64,000 nt of DNA from Escherichia phage tuntematon, in the sequence record NC_052660.1, one strand, 5' to 3'. Shown here piece after piece: positions 17,151-47,140 of this stretch. Position 1 is the first letter of the stretch. The number at the start of each line of letters is the position of its first letter. The notes under the pieces were generated by a model that was not told the origin of the DNA, made no database searches, and saw only the letters and a program-made list of their open reading frames with translations. The translations under genes were made by a program, and so were the position numbers.

Positions 17151-17348
17151 TTATTCTATCCCTGCAATTTGATTAACGCGCTTGCATTTTGTAGCGTGCT
17201 GGTCTTCTGTAATGACTCCCATTTCTAACAGGGAATCAATGAAAGATAAAACCGTTTCATGATCATCCTGGGGATGACTGAACTCAGTAAAACCGTTTAC
17301 TATTACGTTGATTTGTCCAGCTTTCGCCACAATGTGCAATGTTGCCAT
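17151..17348 (-). CDS. hypothetical early protein (65 aa)
   Basis: Start moved 30 codons in (MATLHIVAKAGQ); ORF-track N-terminus is hairpin-encoded. Confidence 0.5.
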   Translation of the reverse strand: MATLHIVAKAGQINVIVNGFTEFSHPQDDHETVLSFIDSLLEMGVITEDQHATKCKRVNQIAGIE

Positions 17349-17369
17349 GATCTTAACTCCAAATAGTGA

Positions 17370-17426
17370 GCGGCACCATTGCCGCGCTACGTGGTAAATA
17401 TTATGCCGCCACCTGGCGAACGTCAA
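17370..17426 (-). promoter_or_regulatory. PeSL-like promoter + leader stem-loop (first of array)
   Basis: -35 TTGACG (rc 17421-17426), -10 TAATAT (rc 17398-17403), hairpin 17370-17385. Confidence 0.6.
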
Positions 17427-17535
17427 CCACTTTTTCAATCTTTTTTATTTTCTTTTTGCTTGCTATATATAAAGGAAAGGGCTATCATCTTTCTACCGCG
17501 CCAACCAGGGCGCACAACAAAGAAAGGGCGACACC

Positions 17536-17802
17536 ATGACAACTACTACATTACACCTTATGCACTCATTGGGCTGGCAAGGCGGCACGGTGCACCAGGT
17601 AGCAAGCGCAACGGGCTTAAAGGTTGAAACCGTTCTCAACCTGGGCGATCATAAAGTGGAAGAGATAGAACATTTTGATCCGTTCGCTGATGGTTATTTA
17701 TGGGCTTGTAATGGCGGCGGGGAAAGCAAGATACCGCCAGGGGCGCGGGGCGATATGTATTTTTGGTTAGGTGTCCTATCCTGGCAAGAAAACAAAAAAT
17801 AA
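17536..17802 (+). CDS. hypothetical protein, divergent from early array
   Basis: ORF-track ORF; candidate promoter TTGCTA-17-TATCAT near 17457-17485. Confidence 0.45.
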   Translation: MTTTTLHLMHSLGWQGGTVHQVASATGLKVETVLNLGDHKVEEIEHFDPFADGYLWACNGGGESKIPPGARGDMYFWLGVLSWQENKK

Positions 17803-17804
17803 TC

Positions 17805-17833
17805 TTGACAAGCCCAGGGATCGGGCTTATACT
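17805..17833 (+). promoter_or_regulatory. orphan sigma70-like promoter facing ORF-free region
   Basis: TTGACA 17805-17810, 17-nt spacer, TATACT 17828-17833; no ORF of 60 aa or more in the 0.8 kb downstream. Confidence 0.55.
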
Positions 17834-18091
17834 GTTTTACATACAGAAGAGGAAGCGCCACCCCACGGCGTAAAGGCGGGGCTAACATACCAGGGGCACT
17901 GGTTGGAAGGTTGATCGCCGGTAGCTCGTCTAAAATAAATTTGTAAAGAAATGTAAAGATAAAAATAATCGCTTGCTTTTGTTGTTGGTTATGTTATTCT
18001 TATTGTATGGCGAGGGGACACGGGAGCGCGAGACAAACACCGCCCCTGCGCGTCATTCTCTAAATGAGATTGATTCTTATTTAATAAAGTA

Positions 18092-18139
18092 AATGATAAT
18101 CATTCTCATTTATAAACTTAAATGCGAATCATTATCATT
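18092..18139. promoter_or_regulatory. two Fur-box-like palindromes
   Basis: aatgataatcatt (18092-18104) equals the 13-bp core of the Fur box consensus GATAATGATAATCATTATC; gaatcattatcatt (18126-18139) is close. Confidence 0.35.
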
Positions 18140-18190
18140 TGCATTTCCATATGAGAACCCTTCTCATTCTCACCTGCATAAAAATTTTTG

Positions 18191-18368
18191 TAAACTTTAA
18201 ATTTTGCTTTTGTACTTTCATTTTTGTAAAAGCAAAAAAACTTTAAATACTGTGGGCGCGCAAAATTTTTAAAATTTTCCTTGACTTTTGAGTTTTGTTT
18301 TGTATCTAACATTTTAAGATAATTTTCCTAAACTTTAAATTTTGGTTTTCAACTTTCACTTTTGTAAA
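18191..18368. repeat. 40-bp direct repeat, 2 copies about 138 bp apart
   Basis: taaactttaaattttgcttttgtactttcatttttgtaaa (18191-18230) vs taaactttaaattttggttttcaactttcacttttgtaaa (18329-18368), about 35/40 identical. Confidence 0.6.
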
Positions 18369-18610
18369 TTCTTAAAAAGTTTAAATAATTTGAGGAATTT
18401 TTGAGATAACAAGTAGTGGTAATTTGAGATAACCTTTAATCTTATTGGCAGACCTTCAGGAACCCACCTAGATCGAATCCTAATGATGCAAACTGAAAAA
18501 GATAAGTGTTTGTATAGGACAAAATAATAGGCTCTCTACGGTGCTGTAGGAGCCTTATTTCTGTGCTACAAAGTGACACCTTTGTTCTAAAAATGAAAAA
18601 AGTTAAAATA

Positions 18611-19153
18611 TCACAAATATCGTCTTTGCGGTATTTTGTCTGGGAAAAGTATTTCGATCAGTTTGTTATGATATTTGCCTAAAAGATTCTGCCCTTTCCA
18701 GGTGGCAGGGTTTAGCACCCCTGGTTCATACATCCCCATTCCAATTCCGTAAACCTTATCGTAGGGGCTTGCTTCAACAAACGTTTTGTATTGGTAAAGG
18801 TGTAAGTCTGCATACAAATCTGGATTCTGTACATATTTCAAGCATAAACCTCGCATAACAATACGCTCACGGTTCTCTTCCCATACGTTGTTATCAAAAT
18901 CCGACACTGCCCTACCCATACGTTTGTAATAAGCTTGGATCTTCTCATCTTTCCGTATCAAACTATGAGTCAGAATAGCCTGTGCAGTGTTGTGGTCATT
19001 AAAAAGCAAAGCTTTACGCCACATCATGTATTGTTCGACACAATTAAATGTCTGATTGTAACCTGGTTCGGTTTCTGTAAAGGGTGCAATATACCAATTA
19101 CTAAAAACATCTTTATGTGAAAAGAAGAATACATATTCGTCAGTTATTCTCAT
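18611..19153 (-). CDS. NADAR-family (YbiA-like) protein
   Basis: FFFSHKDVFSNW, CVEQYMMWRKA and WKGQNLLGKYHNKLIE match NADAR/DUF1768 hallmarks (E. coli YbiA: FYSTSDDYGDFSNF, SEHYFQAQKF, GKGKNRLGYLLMELR). Confidence 0.75.
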   Translation of the reverse strand: MRITDEYVFFFSHKDVFSNWYIAPFTETEPGYNQTFNCVEQYMMWRKALLFNDHNTAQAILTHSLIRKDEKIQAYYKRMGRAVSDFDNNVWEENRERIVMRGLCLKYVQNPDLYADLHLYQYKTFVEASPYDKVYGIGMGMYEPGVLNPATWKGQNLLGKYHNKLIEILFPDKIPQRRYL

Positions 19154-19365
19154 TTTTTCATACCTTCTAAGACTTTAGCTTGCCCGTCTTGAAAAGCTTT
19201 CATCAGAACTATCTTAAGATTGACTTCCAAACGTTCTTCATCCTCTTTATAACAATCCAACACTGCTTTAAGTTCATCATAGTGGTTCAGAATAGGTTTA
19301 AAGATTTCATGATCTGCTAAACGTGCCATAGTTTCTCCTTTGTTAATCCATCCACCAGTAGCCAT
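19150..19365 (-). CDS. hypothetical protein
   Basis: ORF, ATGA overlap with NADAR gene. Confidence 0.55.
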   Translation of the reverse strand: MATGGWINKGETMARLADHEIFKPILNHYDELKAVLDCYKEDEERLEVNLKIVLMKAFQDGQAKVLEGMKK

Positions 19366-19708
19366 AAACCGCGTCTGCGTCGATGAGTTTGTGTTTGTTG
19401 TTCCGCATGTAGTCTAAGATAAGTAGACGTTTATTGTATCTGGAGAGATTATGACCCTCTTTTCCGCCATAGTCAAAATATTTTGCAAGATCTTTACACT
19501 CAAACAAAATCAATTCGGGAGTTTCTTCATACTGGTCTGTCTGGTACACTTGACGAATGATCATGTATACATCATCGTCTTCCGCTAAATGCTCTACTGG
19601 TCCACATCCAGCAGGAACAAATTCATAGTCCCATCGAATCAGATGTTTCTCTACTGCTTCAAAGAAGTCCATTCTTTCGTTGCGCATAATTTGAACGTCA
19701 ACTAACAT
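19343..19708 (-). CDS. hypothetical protein
   Basis: ORF-track ORF in operon. Confidence 0.55.
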   Translation of the reverse strand: MLVDVQIMRNERMDFFEAVEKHLIRWDYEFVPAGCGPVEHLAEDDDVYMIIRQVYQTDQYEETPELILFECKDLAKYFDYGGKEGHNLSRYNKRLLILDYMRNNKHKLIDADAVYGYWWMD

Positions 19709-20700
19709 GTTTCCTCCTGTAATGTTCCACCATAAAGTTTATAAATGTTTTGTATTGAAGCCAGACAAGATAGCTCCACTGTTTCTGTGTAGCCATCTGG
19801 CATAGAATATTTGCTCACTGCTTCCGTGTGAAGGACACGCTTACAACGCTTTTCTGCATCTTTGCATTGCTTCACAGTAGGGAAGTGCCACACTTGGCTC
19901 TGTTTCATAGTAAACACATTATGACTATTTTGTTCTTTGATACGGCGATCACTACTATTGGCAATACCAAACTTCAAAGCACAGAGAAGATTTTGTTCAT
20001 CATAGATATAGTTGATGTATGCCTGTTGTTGTGTATGCCCTTTACACTGCGGACAACCACGCCCCTTATGTAATAAGTGGTCAGCATTCCCTATTTGCTC
20101 CCCGTGATCCTTACATCCATATTTAAACTCTCCTGTTGAGGAAGGTTTACTAATCCACTCTATCCAGATATATCCTTTACTTTCTAAACCTTTTCTCGCC
20201 TTGTAAGTGATCTGATCTTTTGTATAACGGTAAACTCTAGTACAACGACAAGGGATAATCCCTTTTTTAAGATCGTTCCCTGCAATGTAAAATTTACCAT
20301 CACACACTCCTGCTTGTACGTATTCATCATGAGAACAAACAGGACATTCAACCATCCAGAGAATATGACTCCCTTTACGTTTGCCTGTATTGGTGAAAAT
20401 GGTACCAGGTTTAAACTTTCCTGTGTTAATGAAATCTTTTATGTGCTGATCGTCTGTCTTACCTCCTTTCCCAACTCCTTTCCCAATTGCACAGACAGGA
20501 CAACCAGCACGACCAGTTTTAAAGTTTTTAAATGTTGTAGTGTTCCATTCATGAGCATACTGACAACGATTGATCATTTTCGTGTGTTGTCCTGTAAACG
20601 GCTCAACAATTCCAATAATCTCAATACCTTTAGCAGCAGCAATAGGTTGACACTCTTCAATATATTGTTCAATACTCTTCTTTACTGGCATATCTAACAA
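19702..20700 (-). CDS. Cys-rich zinc-ribbon protein, function unknown
   Basis: Repeated CPVC/CPQC/CxC pairs (CPVCAIGK, ECPVCSHDEY, CPQCKGH); no catalytic motif recognised. Confidence 0.6.
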   Translation of the reverse strand: MLDMPVKKSIEQYIEECQPIAAAKGIEIIGIVEPFTGQHTKMINRCQYAHEWNTTTFKNFKTGRAGCPVCAIGKGVGKGGKTDDQHIKDFINTGKFKPGTIFTNTGKRKGSHILWMVECPVCSHDEYVQAGVCDGKFYIAGNDLKKGIIPCRCTRVYRYTKDQITYKARKGLESKGYIWIEWISKPSSTGEFKYGCKDHGEQIGNADHLLHKGRGCPQCKGHTQQQAYINYIYDEQNLLCALKFGIANSSDRRIKEQNSHNVFTMKQSQVWHFPTVKQCKDAEKRCKRVLHTEAVSKYSMPDGYTETVELSCLASIQNIYKLYGGTLQEETC

Positions 20701-20726: not shown

Positions 20727-20753
20727 TATAACAAAACCCGCCGAAGCGGGTTT
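20727..20753 (-). terminator. intrinsic terminator after ATPase gene
   Basis: aacccgc-cgaa-gcgggtt followed on minus strand by TTTTGTT. Confidence 0.65.
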
Positions 20754-20769: not shown

Positions 20770-21909
20770 TCAGAATACGCTACCCAGGGTAGTGGAACGT
20801 TGTGTTACAGGTTCCAGCACCACTCGCAGAGTGTTTCCTGGTGTAGTGCTCATAACCAGAATCTTACCACCTTCAATCAGATCACAAGTTAGACCATCAG
20901 CCGTTGCACATAGATCAATATGTGGATCACCATCTTCATCCAGGATAACATAACTGTTGGTTTCCATTGCTTCCACTTCATCATCTTTCAAACTTTGTAG
21001 ATAGATGTTCAGGGAACAAGCACCCGACAAAAACTTAGTAGGGGTGAAGTCGTGCCAGTTATTGATCCAATTCACCTTCAAGGTTTTGCCATTAGCTACG
21101 ATAGAAGCCACATTCCATTTAGCATCGTTGCCTAAAGAAATACCCATCATTTCAAGACATTCTTTAAAAGTCATTTTTGGATAGAAATTCAATTCTTCTA
21201 CAATGCCTTGAATAACATCGAAAGACAACTCTGTGCTAACATCCCATAAACGTTGGAAGTTATCTACGTGCTTTTTATTTACCAAGTTCTTATCCAAGTA
21301 ATCTAACATAGTTTCACTAGACAGTTTATCGTAATTGAAACTGTAGTAGATACGACTAGGACGGTTTACAAAATATTCCGAGATATAACCACTATTTTTA
21401 GTGAGGATGTAAAGTTTATTCCCACTTCCTGTTCCATCCAACAAGGTCAACAGTGCTTCCTGATCTTCTTTCTTAGCGTACACTTTATCAAATTCGTCAA
21501 ATAAAACAACAGCACGATCTGTAATTTTACTCATAAATTCTAAGAAGCCAGCATCTGTGTAAGGCTGTGTAACCAAAATGGTTGGAATACCTAAACCTTC
21601 TGTGGACATTAGGGACATGCTAATTAGTTTAGCTAACATCGTCTTACCACTGCCTTTTGTGCCTGTCAGTAACACCCCAGTATTTTTACCTTCTTTACTA
21701 CGACGAGCAAATGTTTTAATAACATGTGCGGCGCGGTCTTTAGTTTCCCCATAAAGAGTGTTCGGAAGAGAGAAACTTTCGCCACGCACTAAAGAGTAGT
21801 TACCGTGCGGATCGCAGTTGACAACCCAAACTCCAGCAGGAAGTTTATTAGCTTCAACGCCATATTCCTTATTTACAACAGCTACATCTCCAAAAATAGT
21901 GTATTTCAT
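20770..21909 (-). CDS. P-loop NTPase (AAA-type ATPase)
   Basis: Walker A GTKGSGKT and Walker B VVLFDEFD. Confidence 0.65.
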   Translation of the reverse strand: MKYTIFGDVAVVNKEYGVEANKLPAGVWVVNCDPHGNYSLVRGESFSLPNTLYGETKDRAAHVIKTFARRSKEGKNTGVLLTGTKGSGKTMLAKLISMSLMSTEGLGIPTILVTQPYTDAGFLEFMSKITDRAVVLFDEFDKVYAKKEDQEALLTLLDGTGSGNKLYILTKNSGYISEYFVNRPSRIYYSFNYDKLSSETMLDYLDKNLVNKKHVDNFQRLWDVSTELSFDVIQGIVEELNFYPKMTFKECLEMMGISLGNDAKWNVASIVANGKTLKVNWINNWHDFTPTKFLSGACSLNIYLQSLKDDEVEAMETNSYVILDEDGDPHIDLCATADGLTCDLIEGGKILVMSTTPGNTLRVVLEPVTQRSTTLGSVF

Positions 21910-37065: not shown

Positions 37066-37722
37066 ATGACTATTAAACATATCTCTTTTGATGTATGGAA
37101 CACACTGATCACAGCAAACTCCAATTACGCAGACATGCGAGCCTGGACTATCGCAAAATATGGAGATATTACGGAAGTTGAAGCAAGAGCAGCTTATAAA
37201 AAAATCAAAAAGGAACTGGATAATGCAGCACTTCAAGGCAAAGCCGAGTGTGCAGCATACGCCTGGGAAAGACTCGGTTCTGAACTTGGGATAACGCCTT
37301 GGAAGTCTGCAAAGCTTCGTTTCGAGTGTGAACAGTGGTTCCTTAAGTTTCCACCACACGTAGCCGTAGATCTGCCGATGTACTTGCTGTATCTTTCTGG
37401 GCGTTATGATTTGAGTATTAAGAGCAATACCAACTTCATATCAGGGGATATTCTGCGTCGTGCTTGTAAGTTTGATAGTTGGAATTGTTTTGAGTTCACC
37501 CATTTCTCGGATGAAGCTTTACTTTGTAAACCAGATCCGCGATTCTTTGCTCGCACGCTCACGTATTCTCCGATCCCTCTGTTAGGGCACGAAGTATTGC
37601 ACGTAGGCGATAGTGAAGAATATGATGGAAAATGTGTTGACTTAGGATTTAACTTCTGTCATATTAAGAACCCTAACGACTTACTAGAGAAACTTAAAAG
37701 AGGAGAAATTGTAAATGCGTAA
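37066..37722 (+). CDS. HAD-superfamily hydrolase
   Basis: Motif I FDVWNTL (dehalogenase-like DxYxTL type) and motif IV VGDSEEYD. Confidence 0.55.
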   Translation: MTIKHISFDVWNTLITANSNYADMRAWTIAKYGDITEVEARAAYKKIKKELDNAALQGKAECAAYAWERLGSELGITPWKSAKLRFECEQWFLKFPPHVAVDLPMYLLYLSGRYDLSIKSNTNFISGDILRRACKFDSWNCFEFTHFSDEALLCKPDPRFFARTLTYSPIPLLGHEVLHVGDSEEYDGKCVDLGFNFCHIKNPNDLLEKLKRGEIVNA

Positions 37723-38542
37723 TCAAACTCAAATTTTTGCAAATAAATTTGATGACCTGGAAACTGCTACTTTTGATATCCAAGATTATTCAAAATTGAA
37801 ATTTGGTAGTAACCAAGCCGCGCGTCGTATGGGTAAAGAATTGGCACTTCAGTTTTTTGCTCAAGTGGCAATGAAACATATTGGGGAACAATTTGTTATC
37901 ATTCCTTCTCCTTACAACCATGTGCATAATGCTGCAACAATGATGACAGATCATTTTATTAATTACTTTAATATGTTGCAAGCACAATATGATCAAGGTC
38001 GTTCAGCAGAACTGGACATTATTCATCGTAAAGTTAGCTATATCAACGATTATGGTTTCTTGGATAAAGCTAGTCGTAAGAAACTTATTGATGGGGATAC
38101 ATTCTACTGTAACAAAGAATTCTGGGGGGATAAGAAGCTTGTATTCATTGATGATGTAAATATCACTGGAACGCATGAAGACAAACTGATTGAGATCCTT
38201 AATGAAAATCAAGTTAAAAATGATGTTTACTTCCTGTATTTTGCAAAATATGAAGGTAATCAAGCAGATACCGAAGCTAAACTGAATTTTAACTACATTA
38301 ATACACCGGAAGCGTTTGTTAAAATGATTAATGAAGAACGTGATGCACAGTGTCTTGTTCGTCCTATTAAGTATCTTATGGGCCAAAATCATGAAGACTT
38401 CAAAATCATTCTTAGCCAATTGCCACATTACTATGTAGAGCAACTTTTCTTTGGATGCTTGGGAGAAGGTTACAACCGAATTTCAAAGTATGCTGAAAAC
38501 TTTGAATTCTTGGATCGTTACACAAAACAACACATTCTGTAA
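37715..38542 (+). CDS. type I phosphoribosyltransferase-fold protein
   Basis: PRPP-binding loop KLVFIDDVNITGTHEDK. Confidence 0.65.
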   Translation: MRNQTQIFANKFDDLETATFDIQDYSKLKFGSNQAARRMGKELALQFFAQVAMKHIGEQFVIIPSPYNHVHNAATMMTDHFINYFNMLQAQYDQGRSAELDIIHRKVSYINDYGFLDKASRKKLIDGDTFYCNKEFWGDKKLVFIDDVNITGTHEDKLIEILNENQVKNDVYFLYFAKYEGNQADTEAKLNFNYINTPEAFVKMINEERDAQCLVRPIKYLMGQNHEDFKIILSQLPHYYVEQLFFGCLGEGYNRISKYAENFEFLDRYTKQHIL

Positions 38543-38555
38543 TAAGGAGCTAAAA

Positions 38556-39029
38556 ATGCTTAAAATGAAAACAGGTAATCTTATTGATGCCGCTAAAGCA
38601 GGTGAAGTAACTGTTATTGCTCATTGTTGCAACTGTATGTGTAATATGGGGGCAGGTATTGCCCCACAAATCAAACGAGCATTTCCTTACGCATATGCAG
38701 CAGACTTAGACACAATGGCTGGTGATCAAAGTAAACTAGGTTGTTTTAGTTTAGGGGTGCCAGACGAACAATCAGACCCTTTGGTATATAATCTATACGG
38801 GCAATACCGTTACGGATACAATGCTAAAGGTCGTCAGTTGGACTATGATGCACTTTACGATGCACTAATAGCTATGGCTAACGATTTGCTTCTCCGTGAC
38901 CAAAAATGTAAGATCGGCTTACCTATGATTGGCGCTGGACATGCTGGAGGTAATTGGGCTATCATCCAAGTGATGATTGAAGAAACTTTAGTAAAAACAG
39001 GTCACGATGTGACTATTTATAAACTTTAA
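38556..39029 (+). CDS. macrodomain protein (ADP-ribose binding/hydrolase)
   Basis: VTVIAHCCNCMCNMGAGIAPQIKRAFP and IGLPMIGAGHAGG match macrodomain signature blocks; start moved to ATG 38556 behind AAGGAG. Confidence 0.7.
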   Translation: MLKMKTGNLIDAAKAGEVTVIAHCCNCMCNMGAGIAPQIKRAFPYAYAADLDTMAGDQSKLGCFSLGVPDEQSDPLVYNLYGQYRYGYNAKGRQLDYDALYDALIAMANDLLLRDQKCKIGLPMIGAGHAGGNWAIIQVMIEETLVKTGHDVTIYKL

Positions 39030-39263: not shown

Positions 39264-39342
39264 GTGTTGACATAGTTCTTAAAAAGAGTAAGATATATCA
39301 CATGAAGCGGGGAATAGTTCCCCGCAAAGAGAGGAGAAAAGA

Positions 39343-40317
39343 ATGCAACTTGGTTTCCCAATTATTGATGTAGTTGTTTTAGTTGGTATTTTAGCATTGT
39401 CTATTGGTATTGATTTCTTTGGTCACAAAGAAAATAAAGAAATTTCATTCAAATCCGCAGTTGGTTGGTCGATCTTTTGGATTGGTGTATCATTAGCTTA
39501 TTATGGTTTTGTATACTTCCAACATGGTGCCGATTTTGCTAACTTGTTTTTAAGTGGATATGTGTTGGAAAAATCTTTGTCGGTAGATAACTTGGTAGTA
39601 TTTGTAGCAGTATTCGCAAGTTTTGGTATTAAAAGCACACACTTGCAGCACAAGATTCTACTTTGGGGTATTGCAGGTGCGATTGTCTTCCGAGGTGTGT
39701 TTGTAGCAGTAGGCACTTACTTGTTAAGTTTGGGCTGGTATGTTAATATCTTCTTCGGTGCGGTCATCCTTTTCTGTGCAGCTAAAATGGTATTTGCTGG
39801 AGATAATGACGCAGAAGTTGATTACTCTAAACACTGGGCTACCCGTATTGTTCGTAAACTGTTCCCTGTATCTAATAAAATGGATGGGGAGAAGTTCTTC
39901 ACAATCGAAAATGGTGTTCGTGTAGCAACTCCAGCTTTGGTTTGCGTATTCGTGATGGAAATGGTGGATGTAATCTTTGCAGTAGATTCGGTTCCAGCGG
40001 TGATCGCAGTGACACAAGAACCCCTGCTTGTATTCTCTTCGATGTTATGTGCAATCTTAGGTCTACGTGCTCTGTTCTTTGTTCTTAGTGTCGCACTGAA
40101 GTATCTGGTTCACTTGGAGAAAGCAGTTATTGTGGTTCTGGTGTTTGTAGGCGTTAAACTGATGTATCACCCGTTTGCAGAAACATTGCATGAGAAAATC
40201 AGTTTCCTGCCAGCACATATTGATCCAACTGTTAGTATGTATATCGTGCTTGGTACTTTGGCCCTTGGTGTTATTGCAAGCTTTATCTTCCCTGAAAAAG
40301 AAGAAGCTACTGTTTAA
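39343..40317 (+). CDS. TerC-family integral membrane protein
   Basis: Polytopic membrane protein with LEKSLSVDNLVVFVAVF motif typical of TerC. Confidence 0.6.
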   Translation: MQLGFPIIDVVVLVGILALSIGIDFFGHKENKEISFKSAVGWSIFWIGVSLAYYGFVYFQHGADFANLFLSGYVLEKSLSVDNLVVFVAVFASFGIKSTHLQHKILLWGIAGAIVFRGVFVAVGTYLLSLGWYVNIFFGAVILFCAAKMVFAGDNDAEVDYSKHWATRIVRKLFPVSNKMDGEKFFTIENGVRVATPALVCVFVMEMVDVIFAVDSVPAVIAVTQEPLLVFSSMLCAILGLRALFFVLSVALKYLVHLEKAVIVVLVFVGVKLMYHPFAETLHEKISFLPAHIDPTVSMYIVLGTLALGVIASFIFPEKEEATV

Positions 40318-40323
40318 TAAATG

Positions 40324-41942: not shown

Positions 41943-42533
41943 ATGCATACCGAGAGAGACTTGCAACTCTTGTGGTGGGAAGTGATGCAGGAAATAAAAG
42001 AAGATTTTCCTGTTTACTACAACATGTTACGTGAAGCAGGATATAAAGCTTGTGTTAGAAACAAAGTGAATAACTCTTTCGGTTGGTGCAACTACCGAGA
42101 TAAAATTGTTGTTGTAAATTGGCACTTGCATAAGAACTCCACAAGAGATATGATCGTGGATACAATGAAGCACGAAATTGCTCATGCTATTGATGGTTGT
42201 ATGGGTAAGTTTAGTAGGCACGGTGCTCATTGGCAAAAACTGGCAGCAGAATTAGGGGCTAATCCTAAAGCCACTTCCAAAGAGCCGTTGAACCACGAAT
42301 ATAAATATGTTCTTGTTCTGGTAGATAGGTTTGCGACAAGATGTGTTAGAGGTTATAATCGTAAACCTAATCGCATGTACCCAGGTAAGCAACCTAATAT
42401 GTGGTTGAAATCAGATAAAGAAGGGACCGAAGGAAAATTATGGTTGTATAAATGGGACGATTGGGTTAAAGTAGCTAAAGAGTACGGTGTTTCACCATAT
42501 ATAAGAGATGCAGAAGAGGAGAATGAAGAATGA
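41943..42533 (+). CDS. SprT-like zinc metallopeptidase
   Basis: HExxH motif MKHEIAHAIDG with downstream His; SprT-like length. Confidence 0.55.
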   Translation: MHTERDLQLLWWEVMQEIKEDFPVYYNMLREAGYKACVRNKVNNSFGWCNYRDKIVVVNWHLHKNSTRDMIVDTMKHEIAHAIDGCMGKFSRHGAHWQKLAAELGANPKATSKEPLNHEYKYVLVLVDRFATRCVRGYNRKPNRMYPGKQPNMWLKSDKEGTEGKLWLYKWDDWVKVAKEYGVSPYIRDAEEENEE

Positions 42534-43642
42534 CAAGTCCATTTTTAAAAGCAGCTACTGGTGGTCAGAAGAAGCCTGAAATGAGCGTATTTGCTGCAAC
42601 AACAGATGCAAGTAAATCTGTATTCGCTCCAAGCGTGTTAGATGCCAGTCCTGTTTATGCACCAGCGGCACCGCAAGAAGTTCCAGTTTTGCCTTCTATG
42701 ACCCGACAAGAGATCGAAGAGATTGGGGCAGAGGCAGGAACAACCTTGCGTTCCTTGAATGCCGAGGTATTAAAACATCAACGTAGTAATCAAGGCGATC
42801 AGATGAGTGAACGACTCACAGCTTTGATTAAACAGGCAAAACAACTTGATCCAAACTCTATTAAACAAAGCAAGGGTATTACTAAACTCATTAAAAAAGT
42901 TATGGGTATGAAAGAAGACCTGTTTGGGGAGTTTGATAATGTTAATAACCGTATTGAAGAGTTGGTAAAGAACCTTCAAATGGATATTCGCAAAGAAGAA
43001 GATTCCTTGGTATATCTTGAAAAGCTACATCAAGCTATTGGACAGTATGCTGCAAGTTTGAACCGAGATATGCAGCTTCTAACAGCAACCTATGAAAAAG
43101 AAGAACAAGCTTTGGCTGCTCTTCCAGAAGATGCAGTAGAACAGCGACAAGTGATCCGAGATACTTTGGATCTTCTGGAGATTCGTATTGCAGATTTAAA
43201 AGCATTGCGCCTACTGTGTGTCCAAATGGGACCGCGTGTACAAGGTATGCAAAAAGTTTCTGCAAGCTTAATGCGATCTGCGCGTAACATAGTAAATAAT
43301 GTTATTCCTGCTTACTCTGCTAACTTCTCAATGTATATCGAGAGCTTACGTCAAATGAAAGCAGCAGAGACGCAGAATAACGTTCTTGATGAATTTAACC
43401 TGGCAATTAAACTGGGTAGCGATCTTGCCACACAGAATCAGATCGAAGCAGCAGCACTGGCTAACCGTCAAGTGTTGGATATTGAAACTCTGCGTCACGA
43501 TCAGGAAAACTTGGTTAAGATGTTGGAAGAAACTAACCGCATCAATACGGAAGCCCGTGCTGCTCGTGTTGATTATATTAATGAAGTTCAATCTCTGGAA
43601 GACGGGATGGTAGCTGCTGTGAAACGAGGGCTTGGTAAATGA
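42530..43642 (+). CDS. TelA-like (toxic anion resistance family) coiled-coil protein
   Basis: 370-aa mostly helical protein of TelA-like size, sitting between TerC and TerD genes; family call is tentative. Confidence 0.45.
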   Translation: MTSPFLKAATGGQKKPEMSVFAATTDASKSVFAPSVLDASPVYAPAAPQEVPVLPSMTRQEIEEIGAEAGTTLRSLNAEVLKHQRSNQGDQMSERLTALIKQAKQLDPNSIKQSKGITKLIKKVMGMKEDLFGEFDNVNNRIEELVKNLQMDIRKEEDSLVYLEKLHQAIGQYAASLNRDMQLLTATYEKEEQALAALPEDAVEQRQVIRDTLDLLEIRIADLKALRLLCVQMGPRVQGMQKVSASLMRSARNIVNNVIPAYSANFSMYIESLRQMKAAETQNNVLDEFNLAIKLGSDLATQNQIEAAALANRQVLDIETLRHDQENLVKMLEETNRINTEARAARVDYINEVQSLEDGMVAAVKRGLGK

Positions 43643-46272: not shown

Positions 46273-46522
46273 TGAGCAAAAAGTAAATAAACGATGCCTT
46301 ACCATTAAAGATTTGGATGTAGGAGATACTTTCGTCTATGAAAATGCATTTGACGAAAATGGTTTAGACCTTAGTGAAATCATTGTTTATTTAAAAGTAG
46401 ATGATGGGGAAAATGATTATTCTGCTGTAGAACTAAACCATCATGCACAATTAGTATCAATCCAAAACACATCTAAGCTTTTGGAAGTAGAATTGACTGT
46501 AACTGGTATTACACTTAAATAA
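46253..46522 (+). CDS. hypothetical protein (paralog of 44953..45231)
   Basis: GTG start; shared DLDVG.TF and LEV.LTVT.ITLK blocks. Confidence 0.5.
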   Translation: MLNFEIDEQKVNKRCLTIKDLDVGDTFVYENAFDENGLDLSEIIVYLKVDDGENDYSAVELNHHAQLVSIQNTSKLLEVELTVTGITLK

Positions 46523-46537
46523 TAGAGGAGACAAAAG

Positions 46538-47140
46538 ATGACTGATAAAATTTCCCTGAAAAAAGGCTCTAGCGAAAAAATTTCCCTGAAGAAGGTTGCT
46601 CCGGCTCTGAAAGAACTGCGCCTGGAATTCTCTTGGAAGTCTGATTCTAAACTGGATCTGGATGTAAGTGCACTGGTTTGTCGTCACAATGCCGCTGGCA
46701 ATCCTGAAATGCTGTCTGCACGTCATCTTGTTTGCTATGCTAACAAGTTTGATCCTGAACGTTCTACCTTCGCTGGTGACGATGTTCGTGATGGCACTGG
46801 CAGCATGGAGCAGATTGATATTACTCTGGCTAAAATCTCTCCTGATGCACAAGAGATTGCCTTTGTTCTGACCATTGATGATGATACAGGTCTGAAACGT
46901 TTTGGTCATGCTTCTGAAGGTATGCTTAAAATCTTCGACTCCGAGCGCAATGTGGAAATTCTGGATTTTGACTTCCTGGCTCCTGAAGTAGCTGGTAACA
47001 CAATCTGCCACGTGGCTTCCTTGGTTCGTGAAGATGGAGAATGGAAGCTGAAAGCATATGGTGTAGGTAAAGCTGGTCTGGATATTTGTGATGTGGTGAT
47101 GGCCTTCGGTGGTAAAAAAGAATGGTATGAATGTCCGTAA
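46538..47140 (+). CDS. TerD-domain protein
   Basis: 200 aa; LDLDVSALV and GDDVRDGTGSMEQIDITL match the TerD signature (GDNxTGEGDGDDEQI). Confidence 0.7.
   Translation: MTDKISLKKGSSEKISLKKVAPALKELRLEFSWKSDSKLDLDVSALVCRHNAAGNPEMLSARHLVCYANKFDPERSTFAGDDVRDGTGSMEQIDITLAKISPDAQEIAFVLTIDDDTGLKRFGHASEGMLKIFDSERNVEILDFDFLAPEVAGNTICHVASLVREDGEWKLKAYGVGKAGLDICDVVMAFGGKKEWYECP

Follow-up and report, generated by a model that had tools for sequence, protein, structure and literature searches.

Our interest in Escherichia phage tuntematon arose from a single gene of the NADAR family, for which it was asked whether its product erases ADP-ribose from nucleic acid, against which kind of host transferase such an eraser would be directed, and how the gene is embedded and maintained in the phage genome. 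The window analyzed here, by which the whole stretch of 64,000 nucleotides from record NC_052660.1 is meant, belongs to a Phapecoctavirus, a phAPEC8-like myovirus of the Stephanstirmvirinae. The 3.5 kb around the NADAR gene are 97.9% identical to Escherichia phage vB_EcoM-P3322, and the ortholog in phAPEC8 is gp010 with 98.9% amino acid identity. The gene is defined as follows:

18611..19153, minus strand: NADAR (AdfN-like) coding sequence, ATG start, 180 aa, single domain

A preliminary description had assigned the protein to the NADAR family by three hallmark blocks, and all three were recovered, FFFSHKDVFSNW at aa 9-20, CVEQYMMWRKA at aa 38-48 and WKGQNLLGKYHNKLIE at aa 152-167. The assignment was borne out by the profile search which that description had proposed: the Pfam model NADAR (PF08719) matched with 124.2 bits (E=7.8e-36), above the curated gathering score of 35.1, and the alignment spanned aa 11-161 of the protein and positions 3-154 of the 163 in the profile. 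PHROG 1017, which is labelled as of unknown function, was matched with E=5e-52. NCBIfam TIGR02464, the equivalog-domain model of riboflavin biosynthesis intermediates N-glycosidase, was likewise passed with 113.1 bits (cutoff 73.7); this domain model is, however, also passed by proteins of the NADAR family proper. An AlphaFold2 model of the protein, with the alpha+beta fold of the NADARs, reached a pLDDT of 95.7 and a pTM of 0.89, and a Foldseek search of the PDB with this model returned only two structures at E<=0.001, 8BAU (TM 0.78) and 2B3W (TM 0.69). The family profile ranked the same two in the same order, with E=1.7e-35 for 8BAU vs E=2.8e-16 for E. coli YbiA (2B3W), about 19 orders of magnitude apart, while structures of DarG1 were matched neither by the profile (E<=0.01) nor by Foldseek (E<=10).

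The active site was examined in an alignment of 43 homologs, in which conservation was scored, and in a second alignment of seven sequences including YbiA and T4 gp30.3. Invariant among the 43 homologs were E40, K47, G80, W91, the stretch E127-A-S-P, D132, G136, W152, G154, N156 and G159, and K77 and R81 were conserved in at least 90% of them. Conserved catalytic residues, the absence of which would have spoken against the family according to the preliminary description, are thus present with E40, K47 and E127. In HMMER alignments to 8BAU, the structure of the NADAR of Phytophthora nicotianae (PnNADAR), residues E40, K47, K77, R81 and E127 correspond to E43, K50, K75, R79 and E125, which in PnNADAR serve distal-ribose and phosphate coordination and catalysis (Schuller et al., 2023, PMC11543638). 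The spacing of seven residues between the conserved Glu and Lys (PnNADAR E43/K50) is retained in E40/K47. Three of the codons are of particular relevance for what follows:

19033..19035, minus strand: codon of E40, equivalent to PnNADAR E43 and T4 AdfN E36; invariant in the 43- and the seven-sequence alignment
19012..19014, minus strand: codon of K47, equivalent to PnNADAR K50, E. coli C7 NADAR K95 and T4 AdfN K43; invariant in both alignments
18772..18774, minus strand: codon of E127 in the motif VEASPYD, equivalent to PnNADAR E125 and SCO5665 E167; invariant in the 43 homologs

The glutamate equivalent to E40 coordinates the distal ribose (PMC11543638; PMC11825919), and the lysine equivalent to K47 takes part in phosphate coordination and was essential in the NADARs tested (PMC11543638). 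The residue equivalent to E127 is the catalytic acid by which Glu-type NADARs are defined, its place being taken by Asp in DarG1 and by His in T4-type AdfN (PMC11543638; PMC12945103). E127 aligns with the 'YEAS' motif of 8BAU, and the same column of the seven-sequence alignment holds His in T4 and Glu in YbiA. An insertion of 7-12 residues at aa ~63-75, directly before the K77/R81 motif, is a feature of the clade to which the tuntematon protein belongs. Overall, the protein is a NADAR of the Glu type that stands alone and belongs to the 'NADAR proper' family, not to the DarG1, the T4 or the housekeeping YbiA type.

The surroundings of the gene were considered next to its product, and the following features are needed to describe them:

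18519..18555, minus strand: intrinsic-terminator-like hairpin with U-rich tail (hairpin at 18529-18555, then UAUUAUUUU)
19150..19365, minus strand: small ORF upstream of the NADAR gene, 59-71 aa depending on the choice of start, an annotated CDS in relatives
19343..19708, minus strand: 121-aa ORF in the same tight gene run, without hit in the Pfam scan
19702..20700, minus strand: 332-aa endonuclease-like protein with CapR homology, a treble-clef zinc finger and a weak MUG113/T5orf172 match (Pfam)

The endonuclease-like gene is the first of a tight run of four genes, which is preceded by a terminator-like hairpin (20734-20753) and an AAA ATPase gene, and the three minus-strand genes upstream of the NADAR gene overlap or abut one another. 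The small ORF, which also had no Pfam hit, ends in an ATGA (19150-19153) in which its stop overlaps the start of the NADAR gene, an arrangement suggesting that the two may be translationally coupled. Hairpin and UAUUAUUUU lie 56-92 nt beyond the NADAR stop. A simple terminator scan reported nothing directly after the NADAR gene, and the hairpin was obtained by explicit folding, with a minimum free energy of -30.3 kcal/mol vs an average of -16.4 for shuffled sequences (z=-4.48; none of 200 shuffles was as stable); the annotation of phAPEC8 has an ARNold terminator at the corresponding position. Downstream of it follows a gene-poor gap of ~1.3 kb, which according to the annotation of a relative holds one small ORF and in which an Rfam scan yielded sub-threshold noise only; tRNAs were absent from the window. 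Overlapping and abutting minus-strand genes, hairpin and U-tract after the NADAR gene and the gene-poor gap beyond it confirm the earlier placement of the gene at the end of a leftward operon.

A Pfam scan of the four genes upstream of the NADAR gene detected no ADP-ribosyltransferase (ART) domain, and no ART is annotated in the equivalent of the 64-kb window in PV191315.1. Judged from gene content, the tuntematon NADAR would therefore qualify as an orphan, a NADAR of a lytic phage with no cognate transferase beside its gene. A functional tie to the AAA ATPase or to the CapR/zinc-finger protein was considered as well and rejected, as the domain hits of these neighbors have no connection to ADP-ribose.

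How widely the gene is distributed was assessed by tblastn, which at a threshold of >=80% identity found the NADAR in 69 Phapecoctavirus-level phage records and the adjacent ATPase likewise in 69, a comparison of totals and not of record lists. It is likely that the gene is universal in the sampled Phapecoctavirus. At >=99% identity the ATPase was retained in 61 of the 69 records vs only four of the 69 for the NADAR, which is thus far more variable. Two allele groups can be distinguished, the differences of which cluster at aa 52-72 and 84-90 and hence partly in the insertion before K77/R81. All eight sampled alleles, which span the diversity, are intact ORFs of 180 codons with zero variation at the catalytic positions, and pairwise dN/dS among them ranged from 0.02 to 0.23, by which measure the gene is under purifying selection. 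The phage records carry it under the labels 'GTP cyclohydrolase II', 'YbiA-like N-glycosidase' and 'hypothetical protein'.

With regard to a host origin or prophage copies, blastn against 5,426 complete E. coli genomes found no similar DNA. The nearest non-phage homologs share 41-48% identity and are stand-alone 'NADAR family proteins'. Of the closest bacterial homologs, neither the copy in Burkholderia, which lies in a prophage-like block, nor that in Kofleriaceae, which lies among housekeeping genes, has an ART beside it. A derivation of the clade from a toxin-antitoxin pair had been considered, and these two neighborhoods offered no evidence of any particular other toxin.

An indication of function comes from a relative that has been studied experimentally. 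Johannesman et al. [quoted passage not shown] In the same study two unrelated phage NADARs, AdfN-Bas32 and AdfN-Bas60, neutralised DarT1 in uninfected cells without other phage factors and enabled RB69, T5 and Bas25 to form plaques again on DarTG1 hosts, whereas DarTG2 was unaffected; AdfN-Bas60 was assayed by ectopic expression only and not by deleting its gene from the phage that encodes it (PMC11825919). The phages Bas60-62 are phi92-like members of the BASEL collection and are currently assigned to Justusliebigvirus, which is the sister genus of Phapecoctavirus. Their records contain NADAR genes as bas60_0111 (PaulScherrer) and bas61_0107 (EmilieFrey), both annotated as 'putative YbiA-like N-glycosidase'. 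We infer that AdfN-Bas60 is the product of bas60_0111, because that genome has no other NADAR match. It shares 59% identity over 172 aa with the tuntematon NADAR (E=1e-69), and its gene follows an ATPase and an endonuclease-like gene and precedes a gene-poor gap, as in the window. If bas60_0111 is AdfN-Bas60, the tuntematon NADAR would, by sequence and position, be the positional ortholog of a validated anti-DarTG1 factor.

The two proteins are also alike in detail, being single-domain proteins of ~180 aa with the three motif blocks, a Glu-type site and the insertion before the K/R motif, and their phages belong to genera of one subfamily, Stephanstirmvirinae. They differ in 41% of residues, in an extra loop of 6-7 residues after aa 30 in Bas60, and in the two extra small genes which Phapecoctavirus, unlike Bas60, has between the endonuclease-like gene and the NADAR gene. 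The counter-defence suggested in the preliminary description, in which guanine ADP-ribosylation by DarT1 is erased, has been demonstrated for phage NADARs including AdfN-Bas60 (PMC11825919), and at 59% identity it can by analogy be extended to the tuntematon protein, for which the same activity, with DarTG1 as the main natural target, would be expected.

It is therefore our view that the protein is quite probably a Bas60-type AdfN, an orphan, antitoxin-like anti-DarT ADP-ribosylglycohydrolase of a lytic Phapecoctavirus, a reading based on family, fold and active-site conservation, on orthology and synteny with AdfN-Bas60, and on genus-wide conservation and purifying selection. In the mechanism proposed, host DarT1 would transfer ADP-ribose from NAD+ onto guanine N2 in single-stranded phage DNA, a modification by which phage replication would be blocked. 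The NADAR would then bind the ADP-ribose, its phosphates held by K47, K77 and R81 and its distal ribose by E40 and E127, and hydrolyse the bond between ribose C1'' and guanine N2, so that ADP-ribose would be released and the DNA left unmodified again. Since its target would be the lesion and not the toxin, the enzyme should counter any guanine-directed ADP-ribosyltransferase. However, activity in vitro is no guarantee of protection in vivo, because uninfected cells are not rescued from DarT1 by YbiA or T4 gp30.3, although both hydrolyse G-ADPr in the test tube (PMC11125620). A further reservation concerns the insertion of the clade before K77/R81, the region in which allelic variation is concentrated. 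In the literature searched, nothing linked Phapecoctavirus to DarTG phenotypes.

The alternative closest to this reading retains the chemistry and assumes a main natural target that is different or broader, namely cytidine in addition to guanine, RNA in addition to DNA, the products of transferases other than DarT1, or N-glycosidic bonds in soluble ADPr-derived immune signals; the transferases imagined for it are pierisin/ScARP-like, YarT-like, or the toxin of an uncharacterised defence system. The tuntematon protein has the Glu-type catalytic acid E127, and C-ADPr on DNA and RNA is removed by NADAR and YbiA members of the Glu type but not by DarG1 (Asp) or T4 AdfN (His) (PMC12945103), while removal of G-ADPr from RNA is common to all NADAR families (PMC11833690). 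The best PADLOC match was moreover not a DarG1 model but PDC-M42C, a candidate defence-system component (E=1.1e-35), and earlier comparative genomics preferred soluble ADPr-derived signals as targets (Iyer et al.). However, the only in vivo data for the clade concern the neutralisation of DarT1 and DarTG1 (PMC11825919), no anti-phage transferase is known in E. coli that is directed at RNA or produces C-ADPr and is reversed by a NADAR, and the adenine N6 modification made by CmdT is reversed by CmdA (PMC12945103). The closest bacterial homologs examined also have no neighboring transferase that would hint at another cognate toxin. A different or broader main target is regarded as unlikely.

Very improbable is a housekeeping role as a YbiA-type N-glycosidase that would destroy reactive intermediates of the riboflavin pathway, which could be read from the score against TIGR02464 (113 vs 73.7 bits) and from several GenBank records named 'YbiA-like N-glycosidase' or 'GTP cyclohydrolase II'. 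The protein consists of a single NADAR domain and has neither a RibA nor a RibD portion, for which reason the label 'GTP cyclohydrolase II' is best understood as a carry-over from fusion proteins; identity to YbiA is low (29% over 96 aa) and the profile scores ~19 orders better on PnNADAR, riboflavin genes are not annotated in the window, and the ortholog AdfN-Bas60 has demonstrated anti-DarT1 activity (PMC11825919). That the NADAR reverses or tunes ADP-ribosylation by a transferase of the phage itself would have a parallel in several T4-like phages, in which NADARs are co-expressed with ARTs (Iyer et al.); for T4-like early regions, Alt-type enzymes have been suggested. This explanation is hardly to be expected here, since neither the operon neighbors scanned nor the annotation of PV191315.1 contributed an ART, the latter over the equivalent of the 64-kb window, which is part of a genome of ~150 kb.

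The reading of the protein as a Bas60-type AdfN gains a further aspect from a second gene in the window, 20 kb from the NADAR gene:

38556-39029, plus strand: macrodomain protein (longest ORF starts at 38451)

Its product passed the Pfam model Macro marginally (22.3 bits, cutoff 22), and the macrodomain part matched the PADLOC DarG model with E=4.3e-10. The closest solved relatives are SCO6735 of S. coelicolor (2.4e-12) and DarG of T. aquaticus (1e-6). The Asn equivalent to DarG N22 is kept, and, as in SCO6735, a residue other than Lys occupies the position of K80. SCO6735 is among the listed thymidine-ADPr hydrolases (PMC12945103; PMC11833690), and macrodomain proteins (AdfM) are used against DarTG2 by T4 and by chimalliviruses. 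The tuntematon macrodomain protein is hence a candidate SCO6735/DarG-like anti-DarTG2 partner of the NADAR, and the phage probably carries a NADAR-plus-macrodomain pair of erasers as T4 does, built from different lineages. It is possible, although rather doubtful, that the NADAR acts as a broad eraser of G- and C-ADPr on DNA and RNA and that, with the macrodomain protein as candidate for thymidine-ADPr, near-complete cover against base-directed ADP-ribosylating defences would result. This suggestion is made because the dual-specificity Glu-type active site is kept, unlike in T4 AdfN (His) and DarG1 (Asp); if it is true, the cover could extend to systems not yet described, for example PADLOC PDC-M42.

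For the genus as a whole, which enjoys popularity in therapy and in the biocontrol of pathogenic E. coli, the results correct a widespread mis-annotation as 'GTP cyclohydrolase II' or 'hypothetical protein'. They lead to the prediction that Phapecoctavirus phages are intrinsically resistant to DarTG1 and, via the macrodomain protein, possibly to DarTG2 too. The AdfN-Bas60 clade is extended to an entire sister genus, where the NADAR gene appears to be universal, and a natural Glu-type phage NADAR becomes available with which differences in substrate range among phage erasers can be studied. The idea of a phage NADAR directed against DarTG1 and a close ortholog have already been published, and as concept and ortholog are in print, no new kind of biology is involved; modestly novel are only the predicted wider substrate range and the predicted pairing with a DarG-like macrodomain.

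Placed among the known members of the superfamily, the tuntematon NADAR has its best solved match, by profile and by fold, in PnNADAR (8BAU, with bound ADP-ribose), a proven guanine-ADPr hydrolase (PMC11543638), which differs in sharing only ~28% identity and in being cellular and not viral; the 'NADAR family proper' groups PnNADAR with SCO5665 and the sigma70-linked E. coli NADAR. E. coli YbiA (2B3W) has the NADAR fold and a Glu-type acid in common with it and passes TIGR02464, but is only 29% identical over 96 aa and is without the GIGMG...W-KGxN loop segment. YbiA is moreover a housekeeping gene of a LexA operon and provides no protection from DarT1 in vivo (PMC11125620).

DarG1 belongs to the same NADAR superfamily, has the same chemistry and substrate and serves as the functional template for the idea of an orphan antitoxin. 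DarG1 proteins are ~229-234 aa long, with an N-terminal extension and an Asp as catalytic residue (PMC11543638), and are encoded beside DarT1, whereas the upstream genes scanned here include no adjacent DarT. Membership of the tuntematon NADAR in the DarG1 type was rejected, since its NADAR core starts at residue ~1-11 of 180 aa, the catalytic residue is Glu and not Asp, and a DarT is not adjacent. AdfN-T4 (gp30.3) is, like the tuntematon protein, an orphan phage NADAR, and its pair E36/K43 aligns with E40/K47; however, the BLASTP comparison of the two was not significant (E=4.3) and AdfN-T4 has His at the position of E127, on which grounds membership in the gp30.3 clade was rejected. AdfN-T4 requires the context of a T-even infection and gives no rescue of uninfected cells, which AdfN-Bas60 does (PMC11825919). 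AdfN-T4 and the tuntematon NADAR were acquired independently, and the role by which AdfN-T4 counters DarTG1, enzymatic de-ADP-ribosylation, is the same as that proposed here for the tuntematon NADAR.

Among Phapecoctavirus genomes the NADAR gene was found to be much more variable than the adjacent AAA ATPase gene (20770-21909), with at least 99% amino acid identity in only 4 of 69 records, compared with 61 of 69 for the ATPase. The NADAR alleles form two groups, whose differences are concentrated at residues 52-72 and 84-90, close to the phosphate-binding K77/R81 motif, and dN/dS lies below 0.25 throughout. This variability could have arisen by recombination between lineages or by tuning of a substrate-facing surface.

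The surroundings of the gene comprise the following features:

17263-18606: AT-rich, gene-poor gap of ~1.3 kb downstream of the NADAR terminator
19702-20700, minus strand: gene for a 332-aa protein that combines a pair of CapR-homology domains with a treble-clef zinc finger and also matches MUG113/T5orf172 weakly
20734-20753: 8-bp GC-rich perfect hairpin, AAACCCGC-TTCG-GCGGGTTT, with T-runs on both strands, between the ATPase and CapR/zinc-finger genes

The counterpart of the CapR/zinc-finger gene is annotated as 'endonuclease' in relatives, and in KKP 3954 it is broken into two ORFs. Its product is highly variable in length: against 332 aa in this phage, it has 394 aa in phAPEC8 and 325-467 aa in Justusliebigvirus. 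Such variation points to a homing-endonuclease-like gene beside the NADAR gene that is either mobile or decaying. The hairpin is a bidirectional terminator-like element within the leftward gene run, and the NADAR sub-operon may therefore need either read-through or a phage promoter that has escaped recognition. The gap, an equivalent of which is kept in Justusliebigvirus, holds a single annotated ORF, small and on the plus strand (17536-17802); an Rfam scan of it gave nothing above threshold, and tRNAs were absent from the whole window.

The NADAR gene is often misnamed in public records. Most GenBank records carry 'hypothetical protein' and only a few 'NADAR family protein', while 'DNA methyltransferase' is used in one (PQ529420.1). 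The wrong label 'GTP cyclohydrolase II' is a systematic mis-annotation, its source being RibA-NADAR fusion proteins from which the name was carried over. Across the NADAR region, 90-99% identity to E. coli Phapecoctavirus or Justusliebigvirus genomes is shown by records under the names 'Campylobacter phage', 'Acinetobacter phage', 'Klebsiella phage ZCKP1' and 'Serratia phage'. Either these host names are likely wrong, or coliphage contamination lies behind the records.

A macrodomain gene lies in a further block, all on the plus strand (the last four labels are those of the nearest annotated relative):

37715-38542: ComF-like PRTase (Pfam PRTase_3, 144.7 bits)
38556-39029 (longest ORF from 38451): macrodomain protein of the SCO6735/DarG/TARG1 clade (PADLOC, PDB and Pfam matches)
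~39340-40320: Alx/TerC-like membrane protein
~41985-42535: SprT-like
~42530-43640: TelA-like
~46345-46950: TerD-like ('general stress protein 16U')

The ComF-like PRTase gene, directly 5' of the macrodomain gene, belongs to the block that bears these TerC/SprT/TelA/TerD-like labels. The block constitutes a cluster of Ter-type stress or nucleoside-metabolite genes within a lytic phage. The macrodomain protein matched the PADLOC model of DarG (E=4.3e-10), PDB 5E3B (2.4e-12) and T. aquaticus DarG (1e-6); its Pfam Macro score barely exceeds the cutoff. It is a candidate anti-DarTG2 eraser of thymidine-ADPr, resembling AdfM, the macrodomain proteins of T4 and chimalliviruses, and the phage may thus carry two orphan antitoxin-like enzymes, NADAR and the macrodomain protein. 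At the position of DarG K80 the latter has a residue other than lysine, as does SCO6735 of S. coelicolor, which is listed as a thymidine-ADPr hydrolase.
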